Source: Escherichia coli (GTDB lineage: Bacteria; Pseudomonadota; Gammaproteobacteria; Enterobacterales; Enterobacteriaceae). Taken from it: a DNA stretch of 64,000 nt. The stretch lies in NCBI RefSeq assembly GCF_030013595.1, contig NZ_CP122768.1; one strand, given 5' to 3'. Made by a program: the position numbers and the translations under genes. The notes below the pieces were generated by a model. That model saw only the letters and a list, made by a program, of their open reading frames with translations. It was not told the origin of the DNA and did not search any database. Below, piece by piece: positions 1 to 62,400 of this stretch (positions are counted from its first letter, which is position 1; the number at the start of each line of letters is the position of its first letter).

Positions 1-186
1 GAAGGGAGCCCGTCTTCAGGAATGGATGCCTGTCTTTTTCACTGTAAATATCCTGGCATTATTAATGTCAGGATATTTACAGAAGAGCAGCATAACCATG
101 ACGGAACGGGGTTAAGTCAGGTTGTCCTTAGCGCTATTCGCAACCTCGTGCCGCCTTCAGGTTTATGTCCAGACTTCATATCTCTC

Positions 187-10245: not shown

Positions 10246-10392
10246 CGTTTTTACTGGTTGCTACGTTGCCCAACGGCACTGACACAACATTCTGTTTTCA
10301 TTTTTAACATTCCTGATTTTTTAATTCCTCACCTGCTGCACAGTGAAAATTTATGAAGTTAATAACAATATGATTTTAAATGTATTTTTAAG

Positions 10393-48215: not shown

Positions 48216-48301
48216 AAAGAGAGAAAATAAAACTGTGTCCAATATTAATTTACCACTCCAGACCGAAGCATCGGTGGGATTAGCAGAATGATCTGCGTCT
48301 G

Positions 48302-48517
48302 ATGTTGAGGCTGGCTCTTGCCGGCGCAGGCATAACAATTGCCACTCAGGAAACTTTCAGGCCATATATTGAAAGCGGTAAGCTTGTATCGCTGCTTGAT
48401 GACTTTCTTCCACAATTTCCGGGCTTCTATCTGTATTTCCCACAGCGTCGCAATATTGCACCAAAGCTCCGCGCCCTGATTGACCACGTCAAGGAATGGC
48501 GGCAGCAATTGGCTTAA
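48302..48517 (+). pseudogene. yagP: LysR-family C-terminal fragment (yagP-like remnant)
   Basis: 71-aa ORF matching LysR substrate-binding C-terminus only. Confidence 0.5.
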
Positions 48518-48644
48518 ATGTCTGCACCTGCACTGCCTGATGTCAGAACAGTATTTTGATGAATTGCCAGGGTTACAATGGCACAAATACGGCACAGGAG
48601 GAAAATGTGGTGTAATTGAATGTGAGGTAACTACTTGATTTAAA

Positions 48645-48692
48645 TGGTGCCGATAAGAGGAGTCGAACCTCCGACCTTCGCATTACGAATTA
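48645..48692 (-). other. tRNA-Thr(CGU) 3' fragment (anticodon loop through CCA); att-site remnant at island boundary
   Basis: Reverse complement reads ...ctaattCGTaatgcgaaggtcggaggttcgactcctcttatcggcacca; 5' half lacks D-arm and acceptor pairing. Confidence 0.6.
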
Positions 48693-48855
48693 GCGAGACC
48701 AGTGATTCAAGATGTTCACATCCGTTTCAGCATACAATAAAAAATATATAAAAATCAACAAAATAGACATAAATGCAGTATCAAGATGTTTCGCCTTGTT
48801 TCTGATGATATCATGTTAAATGTGTACCCCACTGTGTACCCAAAAGGCTGAAGAT

Positions 48856-50175
48856 ATGACTTTTACTATTACACAAGACAGACAATTGGCTTCATTGACC
48901 GTTACTAAAGAAGAAAAAGAAATCTTATTTGCTGTAAAATCTAAAGCTGGGGGAGGACTCTTTATACGCGTTCGTTATGGTAGCGACAATAAAAGCTGGA
49001 TTTATCGTTATCGAATAGCTCAAAAGCCAGCTAAATTAACACTAGGTAGTTACCCTGCCATGGGATTAGCTCAAGCTCGTAAAGCTCATGCGGATGCAAT
49101 TGAATTAGTAAGAAAAGGTATAGATCCTCGTCATATTAGAAAAAATGAAAAACAAAAAAATGAACAAATGATTATTTACTCTGAATTATGGAAAGATTGG
49201 ATAGAATTCAGAAAGACAAGTAAACCAATTAGCACCAGACCCCTTGCAGATTATGAAGGGACTTATCACCGCCACCTTGAAAAAGCATTAGGAAACCTTC
49301 GCATTGACGAACTTACCAAAAGCGTTATTTTTGAACATCTCAGTAATGTAAGAAAAACCAGTTCTGAAGCAGTTCGTAAAGGATTAATTATTCTAAATAT
49401 GACTCTTGATCATGCCAACTTACAGGGTATGCTTGAGCATAACCCAGCACGACTGCTCAAACCAGCAATGTTTGGTGCATCGATGAATAAACCTCGCGAG
49501 CGATGGCTTCCTGAGAATGAACTCCGGATGCTATGGAAGGCTTTGGATGATGCTACTGTTGGAGGAGGCTCCATTGCATCTGGTGGCTATGGAATTTCCT
49601 CTAGTGTGGTATTATCTCATTCTGTCGCAAATGCACTCCGTTTGATTATTTTCACAGGAGTGCGCCGCTCTGAAGCGGCACAAATGCGCTGGGATCAAAT
49701 TAATGGAGAGCGTTGGACCATACCAGCCACTAAAAATGGGAAAAGCCATATTGTTACTTTACATCCGTATATGCTTTCTTTAATAAAAACACAACGTGAA
49801 TTCACTGAAGGTGCATATGTTTTTGGTTCTACTAGCAAACCTGGCTTTCCCATCACAAATGACGCTCTGACTCGCGCGTTAGAAAGGGTTCGCTCTAAGT
49901 ATCTAGCCGAACTTACTCCATTTTCTCCTCATGATCTGCGTAGAAGTGTTGCGACTGGATGCGCTGAATACCTTGATGCTCCAGAGCGCCTAATAGAGTT
50001 ACTGTTAAATCATGTACCCAAAGACCGTTTAATACGAACATATCAAGTCGGACAACAAGCTGAAAAATTAAAAAATTTATTTATAGAATGGGGGAATTTT
50101 ATTATGAATAACGTCATTACTGTGCAGCAGAATGCTCCGGATAATGTTATTCATATAAAATTTGGGAACAGATGA
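48856..50175 (+). CDS. Tyrosine integrase of CP4-type island (IntF-like; alternative start 48820)
   Basis: Integrase domain (R...HDLRRS...Y); adjacent to tRNA fragment. Confidence 0.8.
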   Translation: MTFTITQDRQLASLTVTKEEKEILFAVKSKAGGGLFIRVRYGSDNKSWIYRYRIAQKPAKLTLGSYPAMGLAQARKAHADAIELVRKGIDPRHIRKNEKQKNEQMIIYSELWKDWIEFRKTSKPISTRPLADYEGTYHRHLEKALGNLRIDELTKSVIFEHLSNVRKTSSEAVRKGLIILNMTLDHANLQGMLEHNPARLLKPAMFGASMNKPRERWLPENELRMLWKALDDATVGGGSIASGGYGISSSVVLSHSVANALRLIIFTGVRRSEAAQMRWDQINGERWTIPATKNGKSHIVTLHPYMLSLIKTQREFTEGAYVFGSTSKPGFPITNDALTRALERVRSKYLAELTPFSPHDLRRSVATGCAEYLDAPERLIELLLNHVPKDRLIRTYQVGQQAEKLKNLFIEWGNFIMNNVITVQQNAPDNVIHIKFGNR

Positions 50176-50267
50176 TAAAAATACATGCATGGTCTGAGAT
50201 ACCCTGTCTACTCGACCATGCAGTATGGTTCAACTAAATCAGTCACAACAAGAAATGATTAGTTTTA

Positions 50268-51116
50268 TTAGATATTGTATGGGATTATTTCTGGATAATA
50301 CTTCGCAATGATGTCATTTAGCCGATCAACCAGTTCTGGTTTTCTGAACGTGATATGCGCGGAGCCCTTCTTAAAGTATCTGATGCTGAACATCTCATCT
50401 TCATAGCAGGCTTTGCCCTGAACGGAGCGGATGTGATCATCCAGCCGAATAATGATATTTTCCCGGCTGTCGGGGATCGGTTTGCCGCTGAACAGGTGCA
50501 GCATTCTTTCCAGGTCGGCAAGTCGATCTGCCTGTTGCCCGGTGATAAGATGCAATCCCCACCGGTCCCACCTCACCAGATTGTTGACGATAATTTTACT
50601 GCCAAATTTACAGGGGCAATTGGTTTTGTAATCCCAGCTCAGTCCCCTGAAGACGTTGATGCCCCCACGCTCAAACACTTCATCCTTATTCTGGTGTAGT
50701 TGCTCAAACGTACTCAGTATATTCTCTTCACTGATTTCCGGAAAATTATCGTACTCCAGTGACCGGTACCATGTATCACGGGCCTGTGCATCCATTAAGG
50801 AAAGCATCCCTGAACGTTGCATCAGGTCACGCCAGATTTCACGGTCAAGGTTGCGGGTGATGGCTTTCATTGCCGTTTCAGGTTTCTCCATCAGCCAGCA
50901 ACCGCAGCGAAAATCCTGTTTCATGGCCCAGTCCGGAGCAGTTTTACCTCCAATACTTTCTGTCATTGCTGATATTTCAGCCAGTTGCCGGATAAGTGTG
51001 TCGATTTGCAGCAGTGTGCTCTTTCGTACAGCCAAAATGTGGCGGATACTGGTTGAGCAGATAACGTCCGTATGCCCGTTGACCACTTCCGGACGGGAGA
51101 TTGTGATGTCTGACAT
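50268..51116 (-). CDS. Hypothetical protein (282 aa), possibly DUF4942-like
   Basis: ORF downstream of yeeW-like gene; family assignment from memory only. Confidence 0.45.
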   Translation of the reverse strand: MSDITISRPEVVNGHTDVICSTSIRHILAVRKSTLLQIDTLIRQLAEISAMTESIGGKTAPDWAMKQDFRCGCWLMEKPETAMKAITRNLDREIWRDLMQRSGMLSLMDAQARDTWYRSLEYDNFPEISEENILSTFEQLHQNKDEVFERGGINVFRGLSWDYKTNCPCKFGSKIIVNNLVRWDRWGLHLITGQQADRLADLERMLHLFSGKPIPDSRENIIIRLDDHIRSVQGKACYEDEMFSIRYFKKGSAHITFRKPELVDRLNDIIAKYYPEIIPYNI

Positions 51117-51200
51117 TATCGGTTTCCCTTTTGGTTTATAAACGAAAACGCCAGCCCTGTTCAGGCTGACGTCAGTGGAATGAAGTATGGTGAGTGATAT

Positions 51201-51623
51201 TTACCGCTTCTGGTGCAGAAGCTGCAGATGACGAAGAGTACGGACATCCTCCCGGGCCTGTTCGATACAGGGCAACAGTGCTACCGAATCCGTTTTATCC
51301 TCATCGTTGTCAAAGATAATTCCCGATTCGCAGTCGATATTGTCCTGCAGCCACGCAATGAGGATATCCAGCGCTGTTTCAGTGGTTAATGGCATCACGC
51401 TCTGTATCACTGTATTGTCTTCCGGCAACTGATGAGGGCTGGCAGAAGTCGCCGGTGTTTCGGTAGCGTCACGTTCATTCACCACGCGGAGTGAATAACC
51501 GTTTTCAGCGACTTTGTTAATCAGTTCAGCGAGCTCAATACCATCGACGTCAACGACAATGCGCCCCATGTTCAGCGCCTGCGCATTAATGCTGTCGGCT
51601 TCCAGCGTCAGGGCCAGTTTCAT
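51201..51623 (-). CDS. YeeW-like protein (140 aa)
   Basis: Position immediately downstream of CbtA-like toxin; acidic. Confidence 0.5.
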   Translation of the reverse strand: MKLALTLEADSINAQALNMGRIVVDVDGIELAELINKVAENGYSLRVVNERDATETPATSASPHQLPEDNTVIQSVMPLTTETALDILIAWLQDNIDCESGIIFDNDEDKTDSVALLPCIEQAREDVRTLRHLQLLHQKR

Positions 51624-52000
51624 TGTTTCGCCCCCGGATGTTTACCCAGGGTAATGTTATTTACCGTTCTGTAGTTGTCGCGTGTCATCAGGCCGGTTGC
51701 CCGGCGTGCCCGGAGGATATCAATACTGTTTATTAACTGAGAACGGGTACAGGCGCTGAATCCCGGCTGGTCGGTACGTACCAGTGCGTATTTTTCAACG
51801 AGAAAGTTCACCGCATCGCACAGTGAAATGCCTGCCTCAATATGCTGCTCAATCACACGTTCATCAGCGAACGGTGTGTCATTCAGCGTAAGGCCGTAGT
51901 GCTGATCCAGCAGTCGGGTGAGCAGTGTCTGCCAGATTTCAACCGGAGACGGGCGTGAACTGGCCGCCTGCCCGGGTAATACAGGTAATGTTTTCATACT
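51620..52000 (-). CDS. CbtA/YkfI/YeeV-family type IV toxin (about 126 aa; ORF track extends to 52138)
   Basis: MKTLPVLPGQAASSRPSPVEIWQTLLTRLLDQHYGLTLNDTPF matches CbtA family N-terminus. Confidence 0.75.
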   Translation of the reverse strand, partial: SMKTLPVLPGQAASSRPSPVEIWQTLLTRLLDQHYGLTLNDTPFADERVIEQHIEAGISLCDAVNFLVEKYALVRTDQPGFSACTRSQLINSIDILRARRATGLMTRDNYRTVNNITLGKHPGAKQ

Positions 52001-52086
52001 GAAGATTTTCCTGAAATGCAGAGATGAAAAATGGAAAAGTGGCGTGGTGAAAGCACCAGGCCGGAGCAGAAGGTTATTCTGGAGAG

Positions 52087-52455
52087 TTACTTTTTCGTTT
52101 CGGGCGTCGGATAAACAGCCATATAAACGTAGCCACAACTGCCGAGGGTGTCGGCTTCGCAGGTCAGCCCTTTTGCATACAGCGTGACGGTATGCTGATG
52201 GCGGGGATTCAGTTCACCGCTGGTGAGCATGAGCTCCAGTTGTTTCATCAGCAGCGGAAAGGCCTGGTCTAGGTGGTACGAATCCGCGTCGCTGAACCGC
52301 CCTCTGATACCGGCGCGGTCGGCAAGGTAATGCAACCGGTTGCCTTCCTGTACCAGACGGGCACCAAAACAGGGCGTCACGGTGCAGGGCAGTCCCCACC
52401 AGGTGCGGTCGTTATTGTCGTCGGGAAGCGTTGTCCCGGGGAGTGTGTCTGACAC
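52087..52455 (-). CDS. CbeA/YafW/YeeU-family type IV antitoxin (122 aa)
   Basis: Family pattern; immediately upstream of toxin. Confidence 0.75.
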   Translation of the reverse strand: MSDTLPGTTLPDDNNDRTWWGLPCTVTPCFGARLVQEGNRLHYLADRAGIRGRFSDADSYHLDQAFPLLMKQLELMLTSGELNPRHQHTVTLYAKGLTCEADTLGSCGYVYMAVYPTPETKK

Positions 52456-52534
52456 GATAAAATCCTCACAGAAAATTGGTTAAGAATGGTCCGGTGGTGG
52501 CGATAATTCTGCTCTTCTGAATGCCCTTCCAGAC

Positions 52535-52756
52535 TCAGTTCAGGGTGACGCTCATCAGCCGGACATACGGACCAAAACTGTCCTTCCGGCGTTCTGCAAA
52601 CACAGCCAGCACACCGGGAATATCCTGTACTTCACGGCCGGTATATGTATCCGTGCTACCGTGCCAGCGGTATTTACCGGTACAGAACGGAAAAAGACGG
52701 GATGCAGGATGCTGACGGTGAATACGCATGGCTTCACCACGGGTGATGATTTTCAT
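52535..52756 (-). CDS. DUF987 protein (YkfH/YeeT-like, 73 aa)
   Basis: Position and size in CP4 module. Confidence 0.6.
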   Translation of the reverse strand: MKIITRGEAMRIHRQHPASRLFPFCTGKYRWHGSTDTYTGREVQDIPGVLAVFAERRKDSFGPYVRLMSVTLN

Positions 52757-52842
52757 GAGAATAGTCCTCCTGAATGTGAAAGTAAGAAACAGCTGAGAAA
52801 GAGAAACTGAAGTGATATGAAGGTGATTGTGACGGTGACGGG

Positions 52843-53334
52843 TTAAAGCAGACCGTGTTCCGCAAAGGAGAAAACCTGGCTGCCACCGATTATCAGATGG
52901 TCCGGTACCCGGATATCCACCAGGGCCAGTGCCTGTACCAGACGCTCAGTGATAAGGCGGTCTGCCTTGCTGGGGGTGACTTCACCGGACGGGTGATTGT
53001 GCGCCAGCACCACGGCAGCGGCATTGTGGTACAGGGCGCGTTTAATCACCTCCCGGGGATGGACTTCTGTGCGGTTGATGGTGCCAGTGAAGAGGGTTTC
53101 ACCGGCAATCAGCTGATTCTGGTTGTTCAGATACAGCACCCGGAACTCTTCCCGCTCCAGTCCCGCCATGTTCAGTATCAGCCATTCCCGTGCCGCATGC
53201 GTGGAGGTGAAGGCCACGCCGGGTTCATGAAGATGGCGGTCCAGGGTTTTCAGGGCCCGTTGAATGAGGCTGCGCTCGCCGGGCGTCATCTCTCCGGGCA
53301 GAAAGGAAAGCTGTTGCATTGTGCTTCTCTCCAT
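52843..53334 (-). CDS. RadC-like JAB-domain protein (YkfG/YeeS-like)
   Basis: JAMM motif HNHPSGEVTPSKAD. Confidence 0.8.
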   Translation of the reverse strand: MERSTMQQLSFLPGEMTPGERSLIQRALKTLDRHLHEPGVAFTSTHAAREWLILNMAGLEREEFRVLYLNNQNQLIAGETLFTGTINRTEVHPREVIKRALYHNAAAVVLAHNHPSGEVTPSKADRLITERLVQALALVDIRVPDHLIIGGSQVFSFAEHGLL

Positions 53335-53820
53335 TCAGTCGATGATGCGCATAATGGCGCTGCATTCCGGATGCTGCAGGGCGTAATCCCGCAGCCGGTA
53401 ATAATGGACCGTCATGGCATAACACTCCGTACGACAGGCATGATGACTGTACGTCATCAGACAGGCAGCAATGCCGGCGGCTTCCGGGCTCATTTCAGCG
53501 CGGTTGCCGTTCATGACATTGAACAGTACCCATATTTCGTCATCATCGTCATCCGGTTCGGGTGCCATAAATGCCCCGCCGTTGTTCAGAGTGTACAGAT
53601 TCCAGATACCACCGCAGTAGTCTTCGCTCAGACGGTCCATCCAGCCGAAAACACGGGGCTCCAGGGTCACCCACTGTGGAATGAGACCAAAGTGCTGCGG
53701 CCAGAAGCTGATGCGCTGTTCATCAGGGACTATGGTGGCAACCAGCTGAGGCTGGTCATTCCCTGATGCAGCGGTTACGGAAACAGAAGGAGTGGTGGAA
53801 TTATGCGAGACGGTTGTCAT
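53335..53820 (-). CDS. Anti-restriction protein (YafX/YfjX-like, 161 aa)
   Basis: Position in CP4 module; acidic stretch PEPDDDDDE. Confidence 0.6.
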   Translation of the reverse strand: MTTVSHNSTTPSVSVTAASGNDQPQLVATIVPDEQRISFWPQHFGLIPQWVTLEPRVFGWMDRLSEDYCGGIWNLYTLNNGGAFMAPEPDDDDDEIWVLFNVMNGNRAEMSPEAAGIAACLMTYSHHACRTECYAMTVHYYRLRDYALQHPECSAIMRIID

Positions 53821-53911
53821 GAGATTATTCCTTATAAAAAGTAAATGAATGGAAGAAACCCCGGGGGAAGGGACAAACGTGAGTCAGAACTGCGCTTTCA
53901 GGGAAAAGGCA

Positions 53912-54730
53912 TCAGCACATGCTCTCCAGCAGCGTTTCAGCCATTACCCACAATGCGCGATTGAGCTTAATGTCGGTGTCGATGCTGTGAATGGCACGGG
54001 TATGGATACGTTTCCCTCTGGCACTGCGACCGGAAATTCCGCCTTTCAGCATATTCTCCTGAATGGTCTGATAAGCACTCCACAGGTCCTTACCGTAATC
54101 CTCCCGGCGTCGTGGTGTCAGAATGTCGGCGGTGGTGACGGGCTGATGTTCGTCACCATAACGGTAAGTCAGTGCCGCCTGTGCCAGCGCCTGGCGTGCC
54201 GGTGGCGGCAGAATCAGCGACTGCATGGCATCACGCTTTTCCTCAATCCGCTCAAACACGCCCACCACCTCGTAAGCCCCTTCAATAACTTTCTCCACCA
54301 CATTTCCCCGGTGTGGAACACGCAATTCTCCCAGAGACTGACCGCAGACCAGTCCATTGGTACAAATGGCACGAAAATATCCGGGTAACATCTGGTAGCT
54401 GGATGAACCGTCATGGGAGTTGAGCAGAATAATTTCAGGGACATGCTGACCGGTTATCTGCCCGGCCCGCCGCAGACGCAGCATGTGTTTTGTGTATTCC
54501 CGGCGGCTCTGGTCGCGCACGCGGGTCTGGCAGGCAAAGAACGGCTGAAAGCCTTCCTGCTGCAGATTTTCCAGGACGGTGATAGTGGGAATGTACGCAT
54601 AGTGTTCACTTCGGGAGGTATGTCGGTTTTCCCCAAAAATACTCGGTACATGGCGCATCAGTTCTTCGTGTGTCAGCGGACGGTCACGGCGTATCTGGTT
54701 TACATGACCAAAACGACTCGCTAATCGCAT
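53912..54730 (-). CDS. YafZ/YfjQ-family protein (DUF932-like, 272 aa)
   Basis: Family pattern from memory; CP4 module position. Confidence 0.6.
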   Translation of the reverse strand: MRLASRFGHVNQIRRDRPLTHEELMRHVPSIFGENRHTSRSEHYAYIPTITVLENLQQEGFQPFFACQTRVRDQSRREYTKHMLRLRRAGQITGQHVPEIILLNSHDGSSSYQMLPGYFRAICTNGLVCGQSLGELRVPHRGNVVEKVIEGAYEVVGVFERIEEKRDAMQSLILPPPARQALAQAALTYRYGDEHQPVTTADILTPRRREDYGKDLWSAYQTIQENMLKGGISGRSARGKRIHTRAIHSIDTDIKLNRALWVMAETLLESMC

Positions 54731-54849
54731 TATTTGCTCCTTATGAATGAGTTAGCGGTATAAATGAATAAATATCCTCCGGCATAGCCGGAGGTTTTTC
54801 AAATGCGCCTGTAAGGCTCTGTTACCAGCCGCGCCCTAACAGGCGCATA

Positions 54850-55525
54850 CGATCTGACATTTGCATTCAACTTCGTTACTTACGGCCCGTAAACGGGCTG
54901 CCCGGATATGGAATCGATAACTGCTCCCCCATTTTATCCTCTTCAAGCTGGTGCTTTATGTAGTCCTGTATCTTCGCCGTGTTCTTACCCACCGTATCGA
55001 CATAGTACCCTCGGCACCAGAACTCCCTGTTTCTGTATTTGAATTTCAAATCCCCAAACTGCTCGTAAAGCATCAGACTGCTTTTCCCTTTCAGATATCC
55101 CATAAAGCCGGATACGCTCATTTTGGGTGGGATTTCCACAAGCATATGGATATGATCTGCGCAGCACTCTGCTTCCAGAATCCGTACGCTTTTCCACTCA
55201 CACAGCTTTCTCAAAATACTGCCTATCGCCCTACGCTTCTCTCCGTAAAACGCCAGTCTTCGGTATTTCGGCGCAAAAACTATGTGATATTTACAGTTCC
55301 AGCGGGTGTGCGCTAAGCTCTTTTCGTCCCCCATTGGGACCCCCTTTTGATTTCTTGTTTGACACTTGCAGTTGCCAGACCGCAAGGTGTTTTAACAAAT
55401 CAAAAGGGGTTTTAATAACTGGCTCAAAGCTGAAAGCTTTCCGGAACCCCCAGCCTAGCTGGGGGTTTTCTGTGCACAAAAAGCCGCGTCTCCCGGAGAA
55501 GACGCGGCCTGATGGGTGAAATGAA
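54850..55525. mobile_element. IS200/IS605-family insertion sequence (approximate ends)
   Basis: Y1/HUH transposase ORF flanked by structured ends; hairpins at 55340-55520. Confidence 0.65.
54876..55334 (-). CDS. tnpA: IS200-type transposase TnpA (about 152 aa)
   Basis: HUH motif HIHMLVEIPP and catalytic Tyr region YYVDTVG. Confidence 0.8.
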   Translation of the reverse strand: MGDEKSLAHTRWNCKYHIVFAPKYRRLAFYGEKRRAIGSILRKLCEWKSVRILEAECCADHIHMLVEIPPKMSVSGFMGYLKGKSSLMLYEQFGDLKFKYRNREFWCRGYYVDTVGKNTAKIQDYIKHQLEEDKMGEQLSIPYPGSPFTGRK

Positions 55526-55530
55526 GACGT

Positions 55531-55800
55531 TTATTGCCTGAGAATTCCCTCACTGGCGAGATACGGATTTAGCTGTTTTCCGGCATCAGGTTCAAAATTC
55601 CAGTACCGCCAGCGCAACTGACCTTCAGCATTACGGATAACCAGCCGGAAATGCGTTCCCTGGTCATCTTCAATAAGCACATTGCGGTAAGCTGTTGTGA
55701 CGGCAACCGCCTGTTCGCGTGAGAAAGGGCCTTCGGGTAATAAACGTGATGTACAACCCGGCATATCTGTTGCTCCCTGAAAGTAAAAGGCCCCGGTCAT
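55531..55800 (-). CDS. Hypothetical small protein (89 aa) downstream of Ag43
   Basis: ORF only. Confidence 0.4.
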
Positions 55801-55834
55801 GATGACCGGGGCCTGAAGGGGAGTGACCTGATTA

Positions 55835-58681
55835 TCAGAAAGTCACATTCAGCGTGGCCTGACCGTTATAACCTTCAGCGCTGCTGCCGCTGACGCTGTG
55901 GGCATAACCGGCCTGAACGCCCAGGGTGATATTTTCCCGGACACGGGCTTCCAGTCCGGCCTGCAGGTCCAGTGACGTGCCATTCTGGGATGGTGAGAAC
56001 GTCATGTTACTGCCGGCTGCGGCTGTACCCATGCTCATGTCACCCCGGGAGCTGAAGGTGCGGATAACAGAAGGCTGTACCCACCAGTTCACCGGCAGTT
56101 CACGCACACTGTGTTTTGCACTGTCGCGCAGGGTGTCACGGGATGAGGTGCCTTCACCAAAGGTCATATCGTTGTGGCTGCCCAGACGGAAACCGGCACG
56201 CACATGTTGTGCACTGCCATGCCCGAACTTCACATAACCGGCGTTATCCTGGCCGTCATCCAGGGAAAGTCCCTGCCAGGTATACTGCAGTTGTGGCTCC
56301 AGCATCAGGTTGTCAGTGATACTGAAGGGCAGACCGGTTTCCAGTGAGCCCAGCCAGCCCCAGCCCCGGGCGCGGAAGTCGTTATTGTCCGATGACGCTT
56401 TCATGCTGTGGCGGGTTCCCTGTGCCACAATGTCAGCCCACAGGCCGGAGGACGTGTGTGTCAGATTCAGGTATCCGCCCAGGCTGCCGGCATCATCCCG
56501 GACCGTGCCGGCACGGGAGCCGTCATCATCCTTAACATCAACGGAAGAATGGCCTGCAGCGCCATATACCCCCGTGGTCACAGACATACCGGCAACCTCT
56601 GTTCTCAGCAGGTCACCCTCCAGACGGACGAAGCCATAGCTGCCGCTGCTTTCCGGCGTGGCCCCACGGGCAATACCGCCGTTGTTATCGTGACCGAGAT
56701 GACCGCCCTGAATGCTGAGACGGACGCTGTTATTTTCACCGTTTACACCGGTCTGATGGCTGCGGGAGCCTGCCAGAATCCGGTCATAGTCCATTGCCTG
56801 TGTCAGCATGGAGGCATACAGGGGGACTTCAGCACGATAAGCATTTTCACTGCGCAGGTACCAGTCTTCATCGCTGTCACGGTTCAGGGTGTAGTTAAAG
56901 ACACCGGCCTGAAGCGGGCGACTCAGGGCAAACGCACCTTCTTCTGTGGTGGCACCATTCTGTGCATCCACAACCCGGATACCCTGTCCGGAGGTTGCCA
57001 CCCCGAGGTTACTGTTTCCGACATTTGTGAACGCAAGCCAGGTTTTGCCGGTTGCCTGACCACCATTAATCACCAGCTGGTCAGGGGCATTGCTGCCATC
57101 AAGGCGAACACGCATATTGATGGTGCCACCCTGACCGGTGAGGTTACTGGTGGTCAGTTTATGGAACGTTACCGGGGCGTCGCCTTTTGCAACAGCACGG
57201 CTCAGGACGGCATCCTGTGTCGTCTGATTATCAAAGCGAATCTCCCCTGCGTTAACAATATCGCCGGTACTGACCACATCACCATTCAGTACCATGCTGG
57301 CGCCTTTACTGAGCTGTGTTCTGCCACTCAGACTTCCCCCGGCAGCCAGCATCAGTGTCCCACGATGTCCGACAGTGGTGTTGCTGGCCTGTCCCCCGGC
57401 ATTAACCGTAAAGCTACCGCCATTTTCCAGCAGCAGGCCGCTGGCCTGACCGGATATACCATCAATACTGAACTTACCGCTGGCATTGGTCCCCTCAACA
57501 GTGGCACCACTGTCTGCAATCAGGGCACCACCGGATGTCATGGTGACACCTGTTGCCTTACCACCGGCAGACACTGCCAGGGTACCGCCGTCATCCACCC
57601 GTGTTTTCTGCGCTGAATGGCCCTCCAGTACATCCAGGCGACCGCCGGACTCCAGAACAAGGCCGTCAGCCTTACCGTTTTCCACCGTGAAATTGCCCAG
57701 ACGGTTGCTGCCGGTGACGGTTGCCGCCGTACTGGTGACCAGTGCGCCCCCCTGCTTCAGGGTGACATTCGTGGCTGTACCACCGGCGTTCACCTGCAGC
57801 TTGCCTTTCTGGTTAACGGTGGTGAAATCCGCCAGACCACCTTCCTTGATAATCTGCCAGCCGTCACTGTTTACAACAGTGCCAGACGCCGTACCGCCGT
57901 TGTGCACATACTGGTACCCCCCATTCAGCGTGGTATCCAGTGCGTGACCATGTACAGTCTGGTCGCCGCCGGCATAAACCACAGTGGTATTTACCGTTCC
58001 TTCAGCAGCCACAATCTGACGACCATTTTTATTGATGGTGGTGCGTACGGCATCTCCGTAGACGGTCTGCCCGGTATCACCATTTTCTGCATCCGGTCCC
58101 CCTTCCGCGCCGGTATTCACAACCGTGTCGGTTGCCACTGCGCCGGATTTGACGGCCTGCCAGCCCTTCTCATTAATGACAGTACCCGTTGCAATCCCGC
58201 CTTCATGTACCCACTGCTCACCGCCGTTCAGAGTGGTGTTCACTGCCTGCCCCTGAAGGCTCTGTCCGCCTCCGGCACTGATAACCGTGTCTGAAACGCT
58301 TCCTCCGGCATTCACTCTCTGAAGACCACCACCGGTGACAGTAGTGTTGTTGGCGATACCGCCATTTTGTATCCATTGTCCGCCGGTATTGGCCTCGTTA
58401 TCCGGCCCATACTCCAGACCGGTACTGATGGTCATTCCGTTGGCCGTACCGAAGACAATCTGGTTGTCATGATTTTCCAGTGTTCCGCCGCTCACGGTTT
58501 CTCCCGTCTGTACAACCGTGTCAGCAGCCAGTGCCGGGACTGATGTGACAGCAGCAAGAGACAGCGCAACCGCCACACCGGCGCGTTTTCCCCGTGAGCG
58601 GGCCAGTTCGGAGGTCACCACCAGGGTGCCCGTAATGTGATTCCATACCAGCCTGTAGCTGGTGTTCAGATGTCGTTTCAT
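55835..58681 (-). CDS. flu: Antigen 43 self-associating autotransporter adhesin (about 948 aa; ORF track start 58756)
   Basis: [35 protein letters not shown]... extended signal peptide; repetitive beta-helix passenger; C-terminal beta-barrel. Confidence 0.85.
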
Positions 58682-58898
58682 CAGCTTTTCCTTACAGAGG
58701 GTGAATAAAAAAGCCGGTACCCACAAATATGGGTACCGGCAGGTACAAAACAGCATGGTCAGATAAAGTGGTTTTTCCCGGACATAAATGCTTCTCCTCT
58801 CTCATCCGCCAGAGAAGTATCAGTCCGTTGTGTGCAATTCCGTTCTGCATGATGAAGAGATTCAGCTGCCTTTTCGCAGACCATTAACCACTATAAAC

Positions 58899-58934
58899 GA
58901 TCGATGGTAACGATCGATACATGTTTTATCGATC
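58899..58934. promoter_or_regulatory. Three GATC (Dam) sites at 58899, 58912, 58931 in Ag43 upstream region: OxyR/Dam phase-variation switch
   Basis: cGATCGATggtaacGATCGATacatgttttatcGATCGtttt, 220-250 bp upstream of flu start. Confidence 0.65.
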
Positions 58935-59052
58935 GTTTTATTCTATTAACAGCAAGGCAGTCACGCAAGAGAAAGAGGTGGGTATGAGGTGTTTGTGTCA
59001 TGTTTTCAGTTGGTTAACGCAATGTAATCAGGCATTTCCCCTGGCAGAGTGT

Positions 59053-59925
59053 TCAGAAGAAAATCCAGTTCCATACAGCGCGGGCAACAGAGACCACCGT
59101 GTCACGGACGACACGCAGAACCGTACGAGCCACAGAGGCAATACAGACGCTCTCCGCCGTGTCAAATATCCGGTCCACCGCACCGGTAAACTGTTCACGG
59201 GCCTGCCCCCGGACAGATTCCGTGCACAACTCGTCCTGCAGGCGGGTCATCAGGGGACTGGCGGCATGGTCGGGAAGTGCTGTCATGAGCGCACTGACCA
59301 GCGTATCCAGTTCCCAGCCGGTGCGGGCCGATACGGCCACAACCGGATGTACGGGCCGGAACAGCCGGAATACCGCATCTGTTTTCTCACGAATGTTCTG
59401 TTCCTGTGCGGGAGAAGGCTGAATACCTGCCATATCCCATTCATGGCAGGGCTCCGTTTTGTCGGCCTGCGTCACCACAAACAGCACCTGCTGATGTCCC
59501 CGGTGCAGGATGTGTCGCCAGAAATACTCATCCACAGACAGGGCACGGTCATCGGCTTTAATCAGCCACAGTACCAGGTCAAGTTCAGGCAGAATGTCAC
59601 GGTACAGGGCTTCATACTCTGCATCCCTGTCCCGGCTCTCGCCCACCCCGGGTAGGTCAGTGATAACCATGCTGTGACCATGGCCACTCAGACGGAAGCG
59701 CTGCGCTTCCCGGGTGCCGGCGTGAACATCACTGACCGGGGTGACCTCCCCCTGAAACAGTGCATTACAGAGTGAGGATTTACCGGCCCCGCTTTTCCCC
59801 ATAATGCCAATCACGGGTTCGTGGCTGGTGAGTTTGCGCAGATGTTCCAGGATGTGACGGGAAAGTGAGTAAGGAAGAGAAGAAAGTGGTTTTTCAATTG
59901 CCTCAATGGCATCAGACGGATTCAT
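59053..59925 (-). CDS. YeeP/YkfA-family GTPase (about 290 aa; ORF track start 59964)
   Basis: P-loop GKSGAGKSSLCNALF; DLPG G3 motif. Confidence 0.75.
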   Translation of the reverse strand: MNPSDAIEAIEKPLSSLPYSLSRHILEHLRKLTSHEPVIGIMGKSGAGKSSLCNALFQGEVTPVSDVHAGTREAQRFRLSGHGHSMVITDLPGVGESRDRDAEYEALYRDILPELDLVLWLIKADDRALSVDEYFWRHILHRGHQQVLFVVTQADKTEPCHEWDMAGIQPSPAQEQNIREKTDAVFRLFRPVHPVVAVSARTGWELDTLVSALMTALPDHAASPLMTRLQDELCTESVRGQAREQFTGAVDRIFDTAESVCIASVARTVLRVVRDTVVSVARAVWNWIFF

Positions 59926-59954
59926 ACATGTATTCCCGGTGAAAAAAGACAAAA

Positions 59955-59980
59955 CCCCGCGCACCGGAAAGGTGGCGGGG
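59955..59980. other. GC-rich hairpin CCCCGCGCACC-ggaaa-GGTGGCGGGG; on minus strand followed by T-run
   Basis: Perfect inverted repeat seen directly. Confidence 0.4.
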
Positions 59981-60255
59981 GATTCACGGAGATAATATCT
60001 GTCTGAAATTATTTAGGATGCAGGTATCTTCAGATAATCGCACCCCCAGAATTTTATTCTTAATAGTTGAATAGTGGTATTTGGTTTCCCTGAGAGAATA
60101 TAAAGATGAATCATGCTGTATTGAGTTTGATTCTATTTGTACTGAGACAGGTATCTTCATGATTATAATCAAAAGCCGGGTGGATTGGTCTGGCGCTAAT
60201 TATTTTCTCGAATAAACTCACTAATTATTGTAACCATCCCAAAGGAGATGATTTT

Positions 60256-62400
60256 ATGTATAATTGTGGTGAATCATATTCAGAATACGACATATCATTA
60301 TCTGACGATGAAAACTATAACGATGACTATTATCGTGAGCGCCCGTGCCCGGGAGAAGTTTTCGGCTATGATAATGATGTACCACGGTTTAGTAAGATTG
60401 CACGGTCTTATTTGCTCCACGTGGGTAGCCTTGACTGGACCAAGATAAATCCGGATATCTTTGGCTCCATGATTCAGGCAATTGCCGAAGATGAAGAGCG
60501 CGGAGAGCTGGGTATGCATTACACCAGCGTACCCAACATCTTAAAAGTTTTGAATCCACTATTTCTTGACGACCTGCGTGCACAGCTGGACGAGGCTGGT
60601 GACAATCCACGTATGTTGCTGAACCTGCGCAAACGCATTTCCCACATTCGTGTGTTCGACCCAGCGTGCGGTTCTGGGAACTTTTTGGTTATCGCGTATA
60701 AGGAAATGCGTGCCATTGAGGCCGAAATCAACAAGAGGCGCAGTGAGCCGGATCGTGCCTCGGATATTCCACTTACCAACTTTCGCGGGATTGAACTACG
60801 AGATTTCCCGGCAGAAATCGCCCGCCTTGCGCTTGTTATCGCTGAGTACCAATGTGATGTGCTGTACCGTGGGCTGCGGCTGGCCTTGGCTGAGCTTCTT
60901 CCTTTACGCAACGAAAATTGGATTACTTGTGGCAATGCACTGCGGCTCGACTGGTTAAGAATTTGTCCGCCAACGGGAACCAGTGTGAAATTACATGGTG
61001 ACGACTTGTTTGGATCACCGCTTGATCAGGCAGAGATTGACTTTGAAAATGAAGGAGGAGAGACATATATTTGTGGAAATCCTCCATACAAGGGTAGCCA
61101 AACCCAAACTGATGACCAAAAAAATGATCTAAAAGCCATATTCGAGAAACGCACAACTAATTGGAAGTCATTGGATTATGTTGCAGGTTGGTTTATGAAG
61201 GCTGTCGACTACGGTAGTCAAACTAACTCGTCTGCTGCGTTCGTCTCAACTAATTCCATTTGTCAAGGTAGACAGGTCGAAACCCTTTGGTCGTTGATTT
61301 TTGCAGCCAAGCATGAAATATCCTTTGCTTATACGTCCTTCAAATGGGCAAATCTTGCTAGCCACAATGCGGGAGTGAGTGTCATTGTTGTGGGAATTTC
61401 TAATCATGTTAAGGGCCCCCGGAAAATATTTTCCACAACTGAGGATTTGGGGACCATCATAAAAGAAGTAGACAACATCAATGCGTATCTTGTCGCGGGT
61501 AAAAGCACAATTGTTGCACAGCGAAGTTTTCCTTTATCCGAAGTAAGTGTAATGGATTTTGGTTCAATGGCGAACGATGGTGGTGGCCTTCTTTTTGACA
61601 GTTCAGAATCAAGTCGTGCAGTTAATGATTATGGTGCTGATATTTGTTATTTTCGAAAGGCTTGGGGAGCTAAGGAGTTTATTTCTGGAACTCCTAGAGC
61701 TTGCCTGTGGTTAAATAAAGACAGTGCTAAAAAAGCAATTCTGAACTCTTGGATTTCAGACCGAATTGAGATCACACGTAAGGCCAGAGCAAATAGTCCT
61801 CGGGCAGCGACAAAAAAACTAGCAGATATTGCTTACAGATTTGGTGAAGTGAGGCAAGACGGCAGCGAGCGAATCATTATTGTTCCCAGTGTCAGTTCTG
61901 AACGTAGGGAGTATCTTCCATGTGGTTATCTCGATGTTGGTTCAATCGTTATCGCTCCGAATCTTGCTTTCTATGATTCCCCGCTTTGGAATATGGCGCT
62001 TATTGCTTCTAGGTTGCATTTGGTATGGGTGGCGACAGTCTGCGGGCGTATCAAAACTGACTATCGCTACTCTAATACCCTTGGCTGGAATACTTTCCCT
62101 GTCCCACCACTCACTGAGAAAAACAAGGCCGACCTTACGCGTTGCGCAGAGGATATCCTACTGGCGCGGGAACACCACTTCCCTGCGACTATTGCGGATT
62201 TGTATGATCCCGCGAACATGCCCCCTGACCTGCGTGCTGCCCATGAACGAAACGACGAAGTGCTGGAACGCATCTATATAGGGCGACGATTCAAGAACGA
62301 CACTGAGCGGCTGGAAAAGTTGTTCGACCTCTACACGAAAATGATTGCTTCGACTGCACCGGTCAAAGGTAAGAAGCGCAAAGCAGGAAATAACGAATGA
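60256..62400 (+). CDS. Gamma-class N6-adenine DNA methyltransferase with large C-terminal putative target-recognition region (714 aa)
   Basis: SAM motif I VFDPACGSGNFLV (about aa 135) and catalytic motif IV ICGNPPYKG (about aa 270); GGAG RBS. Confidence 0.75.
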   Translation: MYNCGESYSEYDISLSDDENYNDDYYRERPCPGEVFGYDNDVPRFSKIARSYLLHVGSLDWTKINPDIFGSMIQAIAEDEERGELGMHYTSVPNILKVLNPLFLDDLRAQLDEAGDNPRMLLNLRKRISHIRVFDPACGSGNFLVIAYKEMRAIEAEINKRRSEPDRASDIPLTNFRGIELRDFPAEIARLALVIAEYQCDVLYRGLRLALAELLPLRNENWITCGNALRLDWLRICPPTGTSVKLHGDDLFGSPLDQAEIDFENEGGETYICGNPPYKGSQTQTDDQKNDLKAIFEKRTTNWKSLDYVAGWFMKAVDYGSQTNSSAAFVSTNSICQGRQVETLWSLIFAAKHEISFAYTSFKWANLASHNAGVSVIVVGISNHVKGPRKIFSTTEDLGTIIKEVDNINAYLVAGKSTIVAQRSFPLSEVSVMDFGSMANDGGGLLFDSSESSRAVNDYGADICYFRKAWGAKEFISGTPRACLWLNKDSAKKAILNSWISDRIEITRKARANSPRAATKKLADIAYRFGEVRQDGSERIIIVPSVSSERREYLPCGYLDVGSIVIAPNLAFYDSPLWNMALIASRLHLVWVATVCGRIKTDYRYSNTLGWNTFPVPPLTEKNKADLTRCAEDILLAREHHFPATIADLYDPANMPPDLRAAHERNDEVLERIYIGRRFKNDTERLEKLFDLYTKMIASTAPVKGKKRKAGNNE

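Follow-up and report, generated by a model that had tools for sequence, protein, structure and literature searches.

IS200 of Salmonella enterica and E. coli (WP_000502112.1 type) has a published length of 707–709 bp, a single 152-aa tnpA gene with an HUH motif and Tyr Y125, and no inverted terminal repeats. The element was first found as a polar insertion, and a map of its left-end terminator, its stem-loop over the Shine–Dalgarno (SD) sequence and the positions of the STnc490 and art200 RNAs is available (PMC4513863). The left-end hairpin, a bidirectional Rho-independent terminator, halts about 85% of the transcripts that reach it, and IS200 has been called essentially dormant (PMC5435999). 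A survey has found that terminator-like sequences are overrepresented directly upstream of IS elements, with the strongest effect for IS200/IS605 (bioRxiv 10.1101/2025.07.22.666184). IS1541 of Yersinia, a sequence variant from a different host and likened to IS200 here by its description, is considered an IS200 orthologue with the same antisense RNA (PMC4513863). One IS1541 copy lies between pheL and pheA, a region with a transcription-attenuation mechanism (PMC3082878).

IS608 of Helicobacter pylori and ISDra2 share with IS200 the Y1/HUH TnpA fold family and subterminal hairpins at both ends, and likewise insert 3′ of a short specific target without duplicating it (PMC5027513). The IS200/IS605 family prefers the lagging-strand template (PMC5027513). 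Both IS608 and ISDra2 carry tnpB, in contrast to IS200, and their targets are TTAC and TTGAT, whereas the element described below stands after a T-run ending in TT directly behind a terminator hairpin. To our knowledge, there is no structural study of IS200 TnpA with DNA.

The window analysed here is a 64,000-nucleotide stretch of E. coli contig NZ_CP122768.1, in which the sequence was read over positions 54000–56500 and ORFs were listed over 52000–60000. The feature at 54767..55477 on the minus strand is almost certainly a complete IS200, a tnpA-only member of the IS200/IS605 family, and this copy appears intact (Table 1). None of the observations speaks against this assignment. An IS200-family element with an HUH/Y1 transposase gene had been proposed in a first-pass annotation, and the comparisons with Pfam, NCBIfam, Rfam and identical RefSeq-annotated copies bear out both proposals. 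The identical copies are annotated as "IS200/IS605 family transposase" in RefSeq/PGAP; judged by its sequence, the element is of an already known kind, a textbook IS200, the same as those copies. The interval first given for it, 54850–55525, was roughly right with both ends misplaced. Its start left out 83 bp at the right end, and with them the right subterminal hairpin; its end took in 48 bp of host DNA with the T-run and hairpin of the terminator of the neighbouring DUF905 gene. The left-end hairpin, searched with up to two mismatches, has a single exact match in the window and no second one, which means that the window holds one IS200 copy.

The ends were mapped by aligning the window with IS200 copies in six unrelated E. 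coli contexts (truC–yqcC, hcxB–ybiJ, a prophage, ppiD–hupB, rimL–opgD and yihF–dsbA). The sequence common to the aligned copies runs from TTGTGCACAG... to ...GGATATTTATT. Since GTGCACAG... and ...ATATTTATT, the two termini, do not form a reverse-complementary pair, the element has no terminal inverted repeats. With TT at both junctions, the placement of the ends can shift by as much as 2 nt, the alternative being 54769..55479. The junction TT probably constitutes the right terminus of the element rather than host DNA, because family members insert their left end 3′ of a short target without duplication (PMC5027513). The sequence itself is equally compatible with either origin of these two nucleotides, and a 2-nt duplication is formally possible; the T residues at a Salmonella IS200 site were read as a duplication of 1–3 bp by Wilson & Nickerson (PMC1360685). 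The 711-bp length, compared with the published 707–709 bp, represents no difference of substance: the published numbering begins 1 nt before the one used here, and a different assignment of the ambiguous terminal T residues changes the length.

Table 1. Features of the IS200 copy and its immediate surroundings. IS numbering takes the G at 55477 as nt 1; L009 is the island of E. coli DSM 103246.
Feature	Window position	IS nt	Strand	Basis
DUF905 family gene (ykfF-like), upstream neighbour, 77 aa	55531..55764		-	Pfam PF06006 8.7e-31; RefSeq CDS of 234 nt in L009
Host target, DUF905-gene intrinsic terminator: hairpin 55483-55508 and T-run 55478-55482	55478..55508		-	Unchanged in the L009 empty site; fold
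Complete IS200 element, 711 bp; left end 55477, right end 54767	54767..55477		-	Empty site in L009; ends common to copies in seven unrelated contexts
Left-end subterminal hairpin AACCCCCAGC-TAG-GCTGGGGGTT, whole AACCCCCAGCTAGGCTGGGGGTT	55445..55467	11-33	-	Unique exact match in the window; fold; published nt 12-34 (PMC4513863)
Rfam RF01405 STnc490 (IS200 left-end / 5′UTR RNA)	55344..55467		-	Full length, 1-124 of 124; 146.4 bits against a gathering score of 56; E=1.7e-31
Putative antisense sRNA art200, ~90 nt, start opposite tnpA codon 3	55325..55415 (approximate)		+	Homology only
SD-sequestering stem-loop	55341..55409	69-137	-	Fold z = -5.6; published nt 69-138 (PMC4513863)
SD AAGGGGGT	55339-55346	132-139	-	Position; without a number in PMC4513863
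tnpA ATG	55334	144	-	Position; without a number in PMC4513863
tnpA, Y1/HUH transposase, 152 aa and stop	54876..55334		-	Pfam PF01797; NCBIfam NF033573; PDB 2ec2 and 2a6m; translation
Long imperfect hairpin GCGCCTGT...ACAGGCGC, right end, downstream of the tnpA stop	54805..54846		-	Fold
Right-end subterminal hairpin CCTCCGGC-TAT-GCCGGAGG	54776..54794		-	Terminator-like on both strands; fold; conserved in all copies
DUF932 gene (yafZ-like), downstream neighbour, 272 aa	53912..54730		-	Pfam PF06067 6.7e-48

The TnpA protein translated from this ATG begins MGDEKSLAHTRWNCKYHIVFAPKYRR... and contains the HUH motif H61-I-H63 and the catalytic tyrosine Y125, with neither a stop nor a frameshift in the ORF. 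An allele with the Y125F replacement is catalytically dead (Ellis et al., PMC4513863). The protein matches Pfam Y1_Tnp with E=8.1e-37 (126.5 bits, cut-off 23) and the NCBIfam equivalog transpos_IS200 with 144.3 bits (cut-off 55). Solved IS200-family transposases are matched as well, namely 2ec2 (2.5e-23), 2f4f, 2a6m/2vhg (IS608) and 2xm3 (ISDra2). tnpA is the sole family-matching ORF within the 711 bp; the other ORFs lie inside or opposite it, and neither tnpB nor iscB is present. A longer ORF of 169 aa with a TTG start (54876..55385) was rejected as the gene, as the ATG has the published SD upstream and yields the canonical 152-aa TnpA.

The left-end terminator and the SD stem-loop are located within 1 nt of their positions on the published IS200 map (PMC4513863). 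The DNA fold z-scores were −5.1 for the left end, −4.4 for the right end and −5.6 for the 5′UTR, and none of 200 shuffled sequences folded as well, so the hairpin-rich ends noted in the first-pass annotation are real features of the fold. The two subterminal hairpins are alike in design, each with an 8-bp stem and a 3-nt loop, and GAAAA stands directly 5′ of both. The right one is preceded by GAAAAA and followed by the right terminus, ATATTTATT. By analogy with the family, the left-end hairpin is the predicted TnpA binding site. As is the case in Salmonella, the element probably expresses the small RNAs art200 and 5′tnpA but hardly any transposase.

On the minus strand, the genes of the island follow in the order GTPase, agn43, DUF905 gene, IS, DUF932 gene, antirestriction gene, RadC/JAB-like gene, DUF987 gene, CbeA/CbtA-type antitoxin and toxin, and DUF4942 gene. 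Beyond the last of these are an integrase gene in the plus orientation and then the pao operon. No tRNA gene was found in the window, and hence the attachment site of the island is not tied to a tRNA here. The IS is oriented as the island genes are. Its left end adjoins the last T of the TTTTT of the DUF905-gene terminator, and 36 bp lie between its right end and the ATG of the DUF932 gene. Without the insertion, these 36 bp (54731-54766; L009 8265-8300) are all that separates the DUF905 T-run from the DUF932 start, and no sigma-70-like promoter was found among them.

Two ORFs in this region have starts that differ from the mechanical listing. The DUF905 ORF was listed with 89 aa from a start at 55800, which overlaps the Ag43 terminator hairpin, and the RefSeq-equivalent start at 55764 gives 77 aa. 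The Ag43/Cah-family ORF at 55835-58756 (minus strand) has 973 aa from its listed ATG and 948 aa from the signal-peptide start MKRHLNT at 58681. The latter length equals that of the RefSeq CDS in L009 (2847 nt) and is smaller than that of the 1039-aa agn43 annotated in island L001. Two weak Rfam matches to host terminator hairpins were rejected as chance, namely mir-885 at 55468-55521 (minus strand, 20.8 against a gathering score of 66) and suhB/mmgR at 55775-55845 (minus strand, 19.3 against 41).

The IS had been described as separating yafZ from Ag43 and its regulatory region. On the yafZ side this holds. On the other side, the immediate neighbour is the DUF905 gene with its terminator, which lies between the IS and agn43, and the regulatory region is found beyond agn43, upstream of that gene and 3.4 kb from the IS, so that a separation of yafZ from this region carries no functional meaning. 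The agn43 gene (55835..58681, minus strand), its terminator (55788-55814) and the DUF905 gene are intact. Upstream of agn43, three GATC sites on the minus strand (58931-58934, 58912-58915 and 58899-58902) form an intact region, and we take this triple-GATC arrangement to be the Dam/OxyR phase-variation switch of Ag43. It is therefore extremely improbable that the IS rewires Ag43 expression by parting agn43 or its regulatory region from its island neighbours. The geometry alone would speak for such an effect, in that the IS belongs to the same island and lies downstream of agn43, whereas the position of the GATC region upstream of the gene, the intact gene and terminator, and the intervening DUF905 gene with a terminator of its own all argue against it. 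We infer that agn43 and its phase-variation switch are untouched by the IS.

The state of the site before insertion is represented by the island of E. coli DSM 103246 (L009), which is collinear with the window over 48287-54772 at 99.5% identity and over 55478-60375 at 97.9%. The only indel between these two blocks is the 711-bp IS. In the tnpA orientation, the empty site reads ...GACGCGGC TTTTT CATTTATACC... and the filled site ...GACGCGGC TTTTT (GTGCAC...ATTTATT) CATTTATACC..., where the brackets enclose the element. The two states differ by exactly 711 bp, with the left end against TTTTT, which fits insertion 3′ of a short target without duplication. The alignment with an uninterrupted island thus upholds the earlier proposal that the element was inserted into a conserved island module. 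As far as sequence comparison can tell, this presence/absence polymorphism shows past movement of the IS.

When the two flanks were joined and used as a query, 3,457 complete E. coli genomes had a match spanning 80% or more of the query. The best match was at least 99% identical in 28 records, and among the matches listed 25 of 25 were uninterrupted at 99.7%. The island allele with the IS in place was found in none of 5,426 complete E. coli genomes, the best full-length matches being 92–97% identical; with no filled genome in this collection, the insertion is specific to a strain or lineage. Copies of the element itself are common. IS200 relatives occur in 2,641 of the 5,426 genomes, at 10,268 matching places, many of them partial, with a median of 2 and a maximum of 35 places per genome. 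The copy in the window is 100% identical over 711 bp to those at truC–yqcC, hcxB–ybiJ and ppiD–hupB in other E. coli strains (L003, L004 and L006), and three further copies are 99.7–99.9% identical to it.

These data bear on the suggestion that the copy is effectively immobile and is kept by the host as a small-RNA locus producing art200 and the 5′tnpA sRNA. Such a role would agree with the intact STnc490 region and with reports that IS200 makes almost no TnpA and that its 5′UTR-derived RNA regulates Salmonella genes (PMC5435999; bioRxiv 10.1101/2024.06.26.600842). However, the transposase ORF and both ends are intact, identical copies stand at other loci, the polymorphism against 99.5%-identical flanks shows recent movement, and no RNA targets are known in E. 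coli. We consider the suggestion unlikely as an account of the locus; it is, in any case, compatible with the reading of the element as a recently inserted IS200.

The homologous junction between the DUF905 terminator and the DUF932 gene is also occupied in diverged islands. In two CP4-44-type islands near yeeA, it carries IS200C (L010 6177-6887 and L012 6177-6887). IS200C (RefSeq "IS200/IS605-like element IS200C family transposase", WP_000526135.1) resembles the window IS in architecture, in its 711-bp length and in this insertion site, and differs from it by 27 substitutions over 711 bp (96.2% identity). In another island (L001 6461-7171), IS200C is located after the Ag43 terminator instead. 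The copy at the DUF905/DUF932 junction of E. coli fS10a (L002 6168-6878) is a mosaic, with nt 1-515 of the window type and six IS200C-type variants within nt 551-667, a pattern suggestive of an exchange between two IS200 subtypes, by recombination or gene conversion. The IS200C copies are 98.3–99.7% identical to one another across sites (99.7% for L010 and L001).

The occupation of one homologous site in the diverged islands L002, L010 and L012 would be expected if the IS were an old resident, inserted before the island paralogues diverged, with the empty sites produced by precise excision. Excision in the family is indeed precise and leaves a seamless donor joint (PMC5027513). Nevertheless, the flanks of the window and of L010/L012 are only 79–83% identical, yet the IS copies are 96% identical, and for each IS there are copies of the same subtype at unrelated loci that match it at 99.7% or more. 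The 28 genomes with flanks at least 99% identical are empty, no genome among the 5,426 has this allele filled, and IS200 moves very rarely (PMC1360685, PMC5435999). Old residence is thus very unlikely, and independent recent insertions provide the simpler account. Because the IS copies are so much more similar than their flanks, and the IS200C copies are near-identical across sites, the comparison speaks for separate hits on one hot spot rather than for one ancient insertion.

The position of the IS behind a terminator was compared with that of other copies. Scanning one genome per species for exact matches to nt 1–31 of the left end gave 25 loci in 13 genomes of other Enterobacterales. When the E. 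coli loci are added to these, the left flank ends in TT directly before GTGCAC in all 35 readable cases, counting sites that recur in several loci, and 32 of the flanks are distinct. A GC-rich hairpin followed by a T-run was present in 29 of the 32 distinct left flanks from E. coli and the 13 genomes of other Enterobacterales (window 55478-55522 and L001-L037). Among random positions, 0.9% passed the same test; among those ending in TT, the share was 5.2%. The three failing flanks also have hairpins, with poorer T-runs. This association with terminators largely restates recent surveys and is in part already reported.

By analogy with the "peel and paste" transposition of the family (PMC5027513), TnpA would have cut the tnpA-sense ("top") strand out of a donor copy and released it in the form of a single-stranded circle. 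The circle would then have integrated into single-stranded target DNA at a replication fork, 3′ of a short T-rich target, with no true target duplication and with the TT of the right terminus being part of the element. The GAAAA runs 5′ of both hairpins are the likely guides, for which the T-run target and the right terminus, TTATT, would be the pairing partners. The plus strand of the window has a negative GC skew (from −0.08 to −0.01), though a weak one near the island; this would make the tnpA-sense strand the G-rich strand and the lagging-strand template. This orientation, the one preferred by the family, gives only mild support to the proposed mechanism.

The insertion may also affect the genes downstream. 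With the IS, we infer, the interval between the DUF905 gene and yafZ has gained a bidirectional terminator, which belongs to the element, and also a second hairpin of terminator-like form. A scan of both strands over 54500–55950 found no sigma-70 promoter-like site; consequently, neither an outward promoter of the IS nor a separate yafZ promoter can be proposed. Since the left-end hairpin terminates transcription, IS200 is polar and no such promoter was found, read-through into yafZ and the downstream antirestriction, RadC-like and CbeA-CbtA genes is probably reduced, as analogy with IS200 elsewhere suggests.

The analysis provides the exact ends of a mobile element of the island and corrects its annotation, and the strain-specific insertion could serve as a lineage marker. 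As to the family, we consider the chances roughly even that IS200 is a terminator-seeking element, whose target would be a single-stranded T-run 3′ of a terminator hairpin, read by an A-run guide. The DUF905-gene terminator of CP4-type islands would then represent a recurrent hot spot for at least two IS200 subtypes, where each hit stacks terminators before the yafZ, antirestriction and CbtA-CbeA module and may silence it. Landing after terminators could explain why IS200 insertions are rarely harmful.
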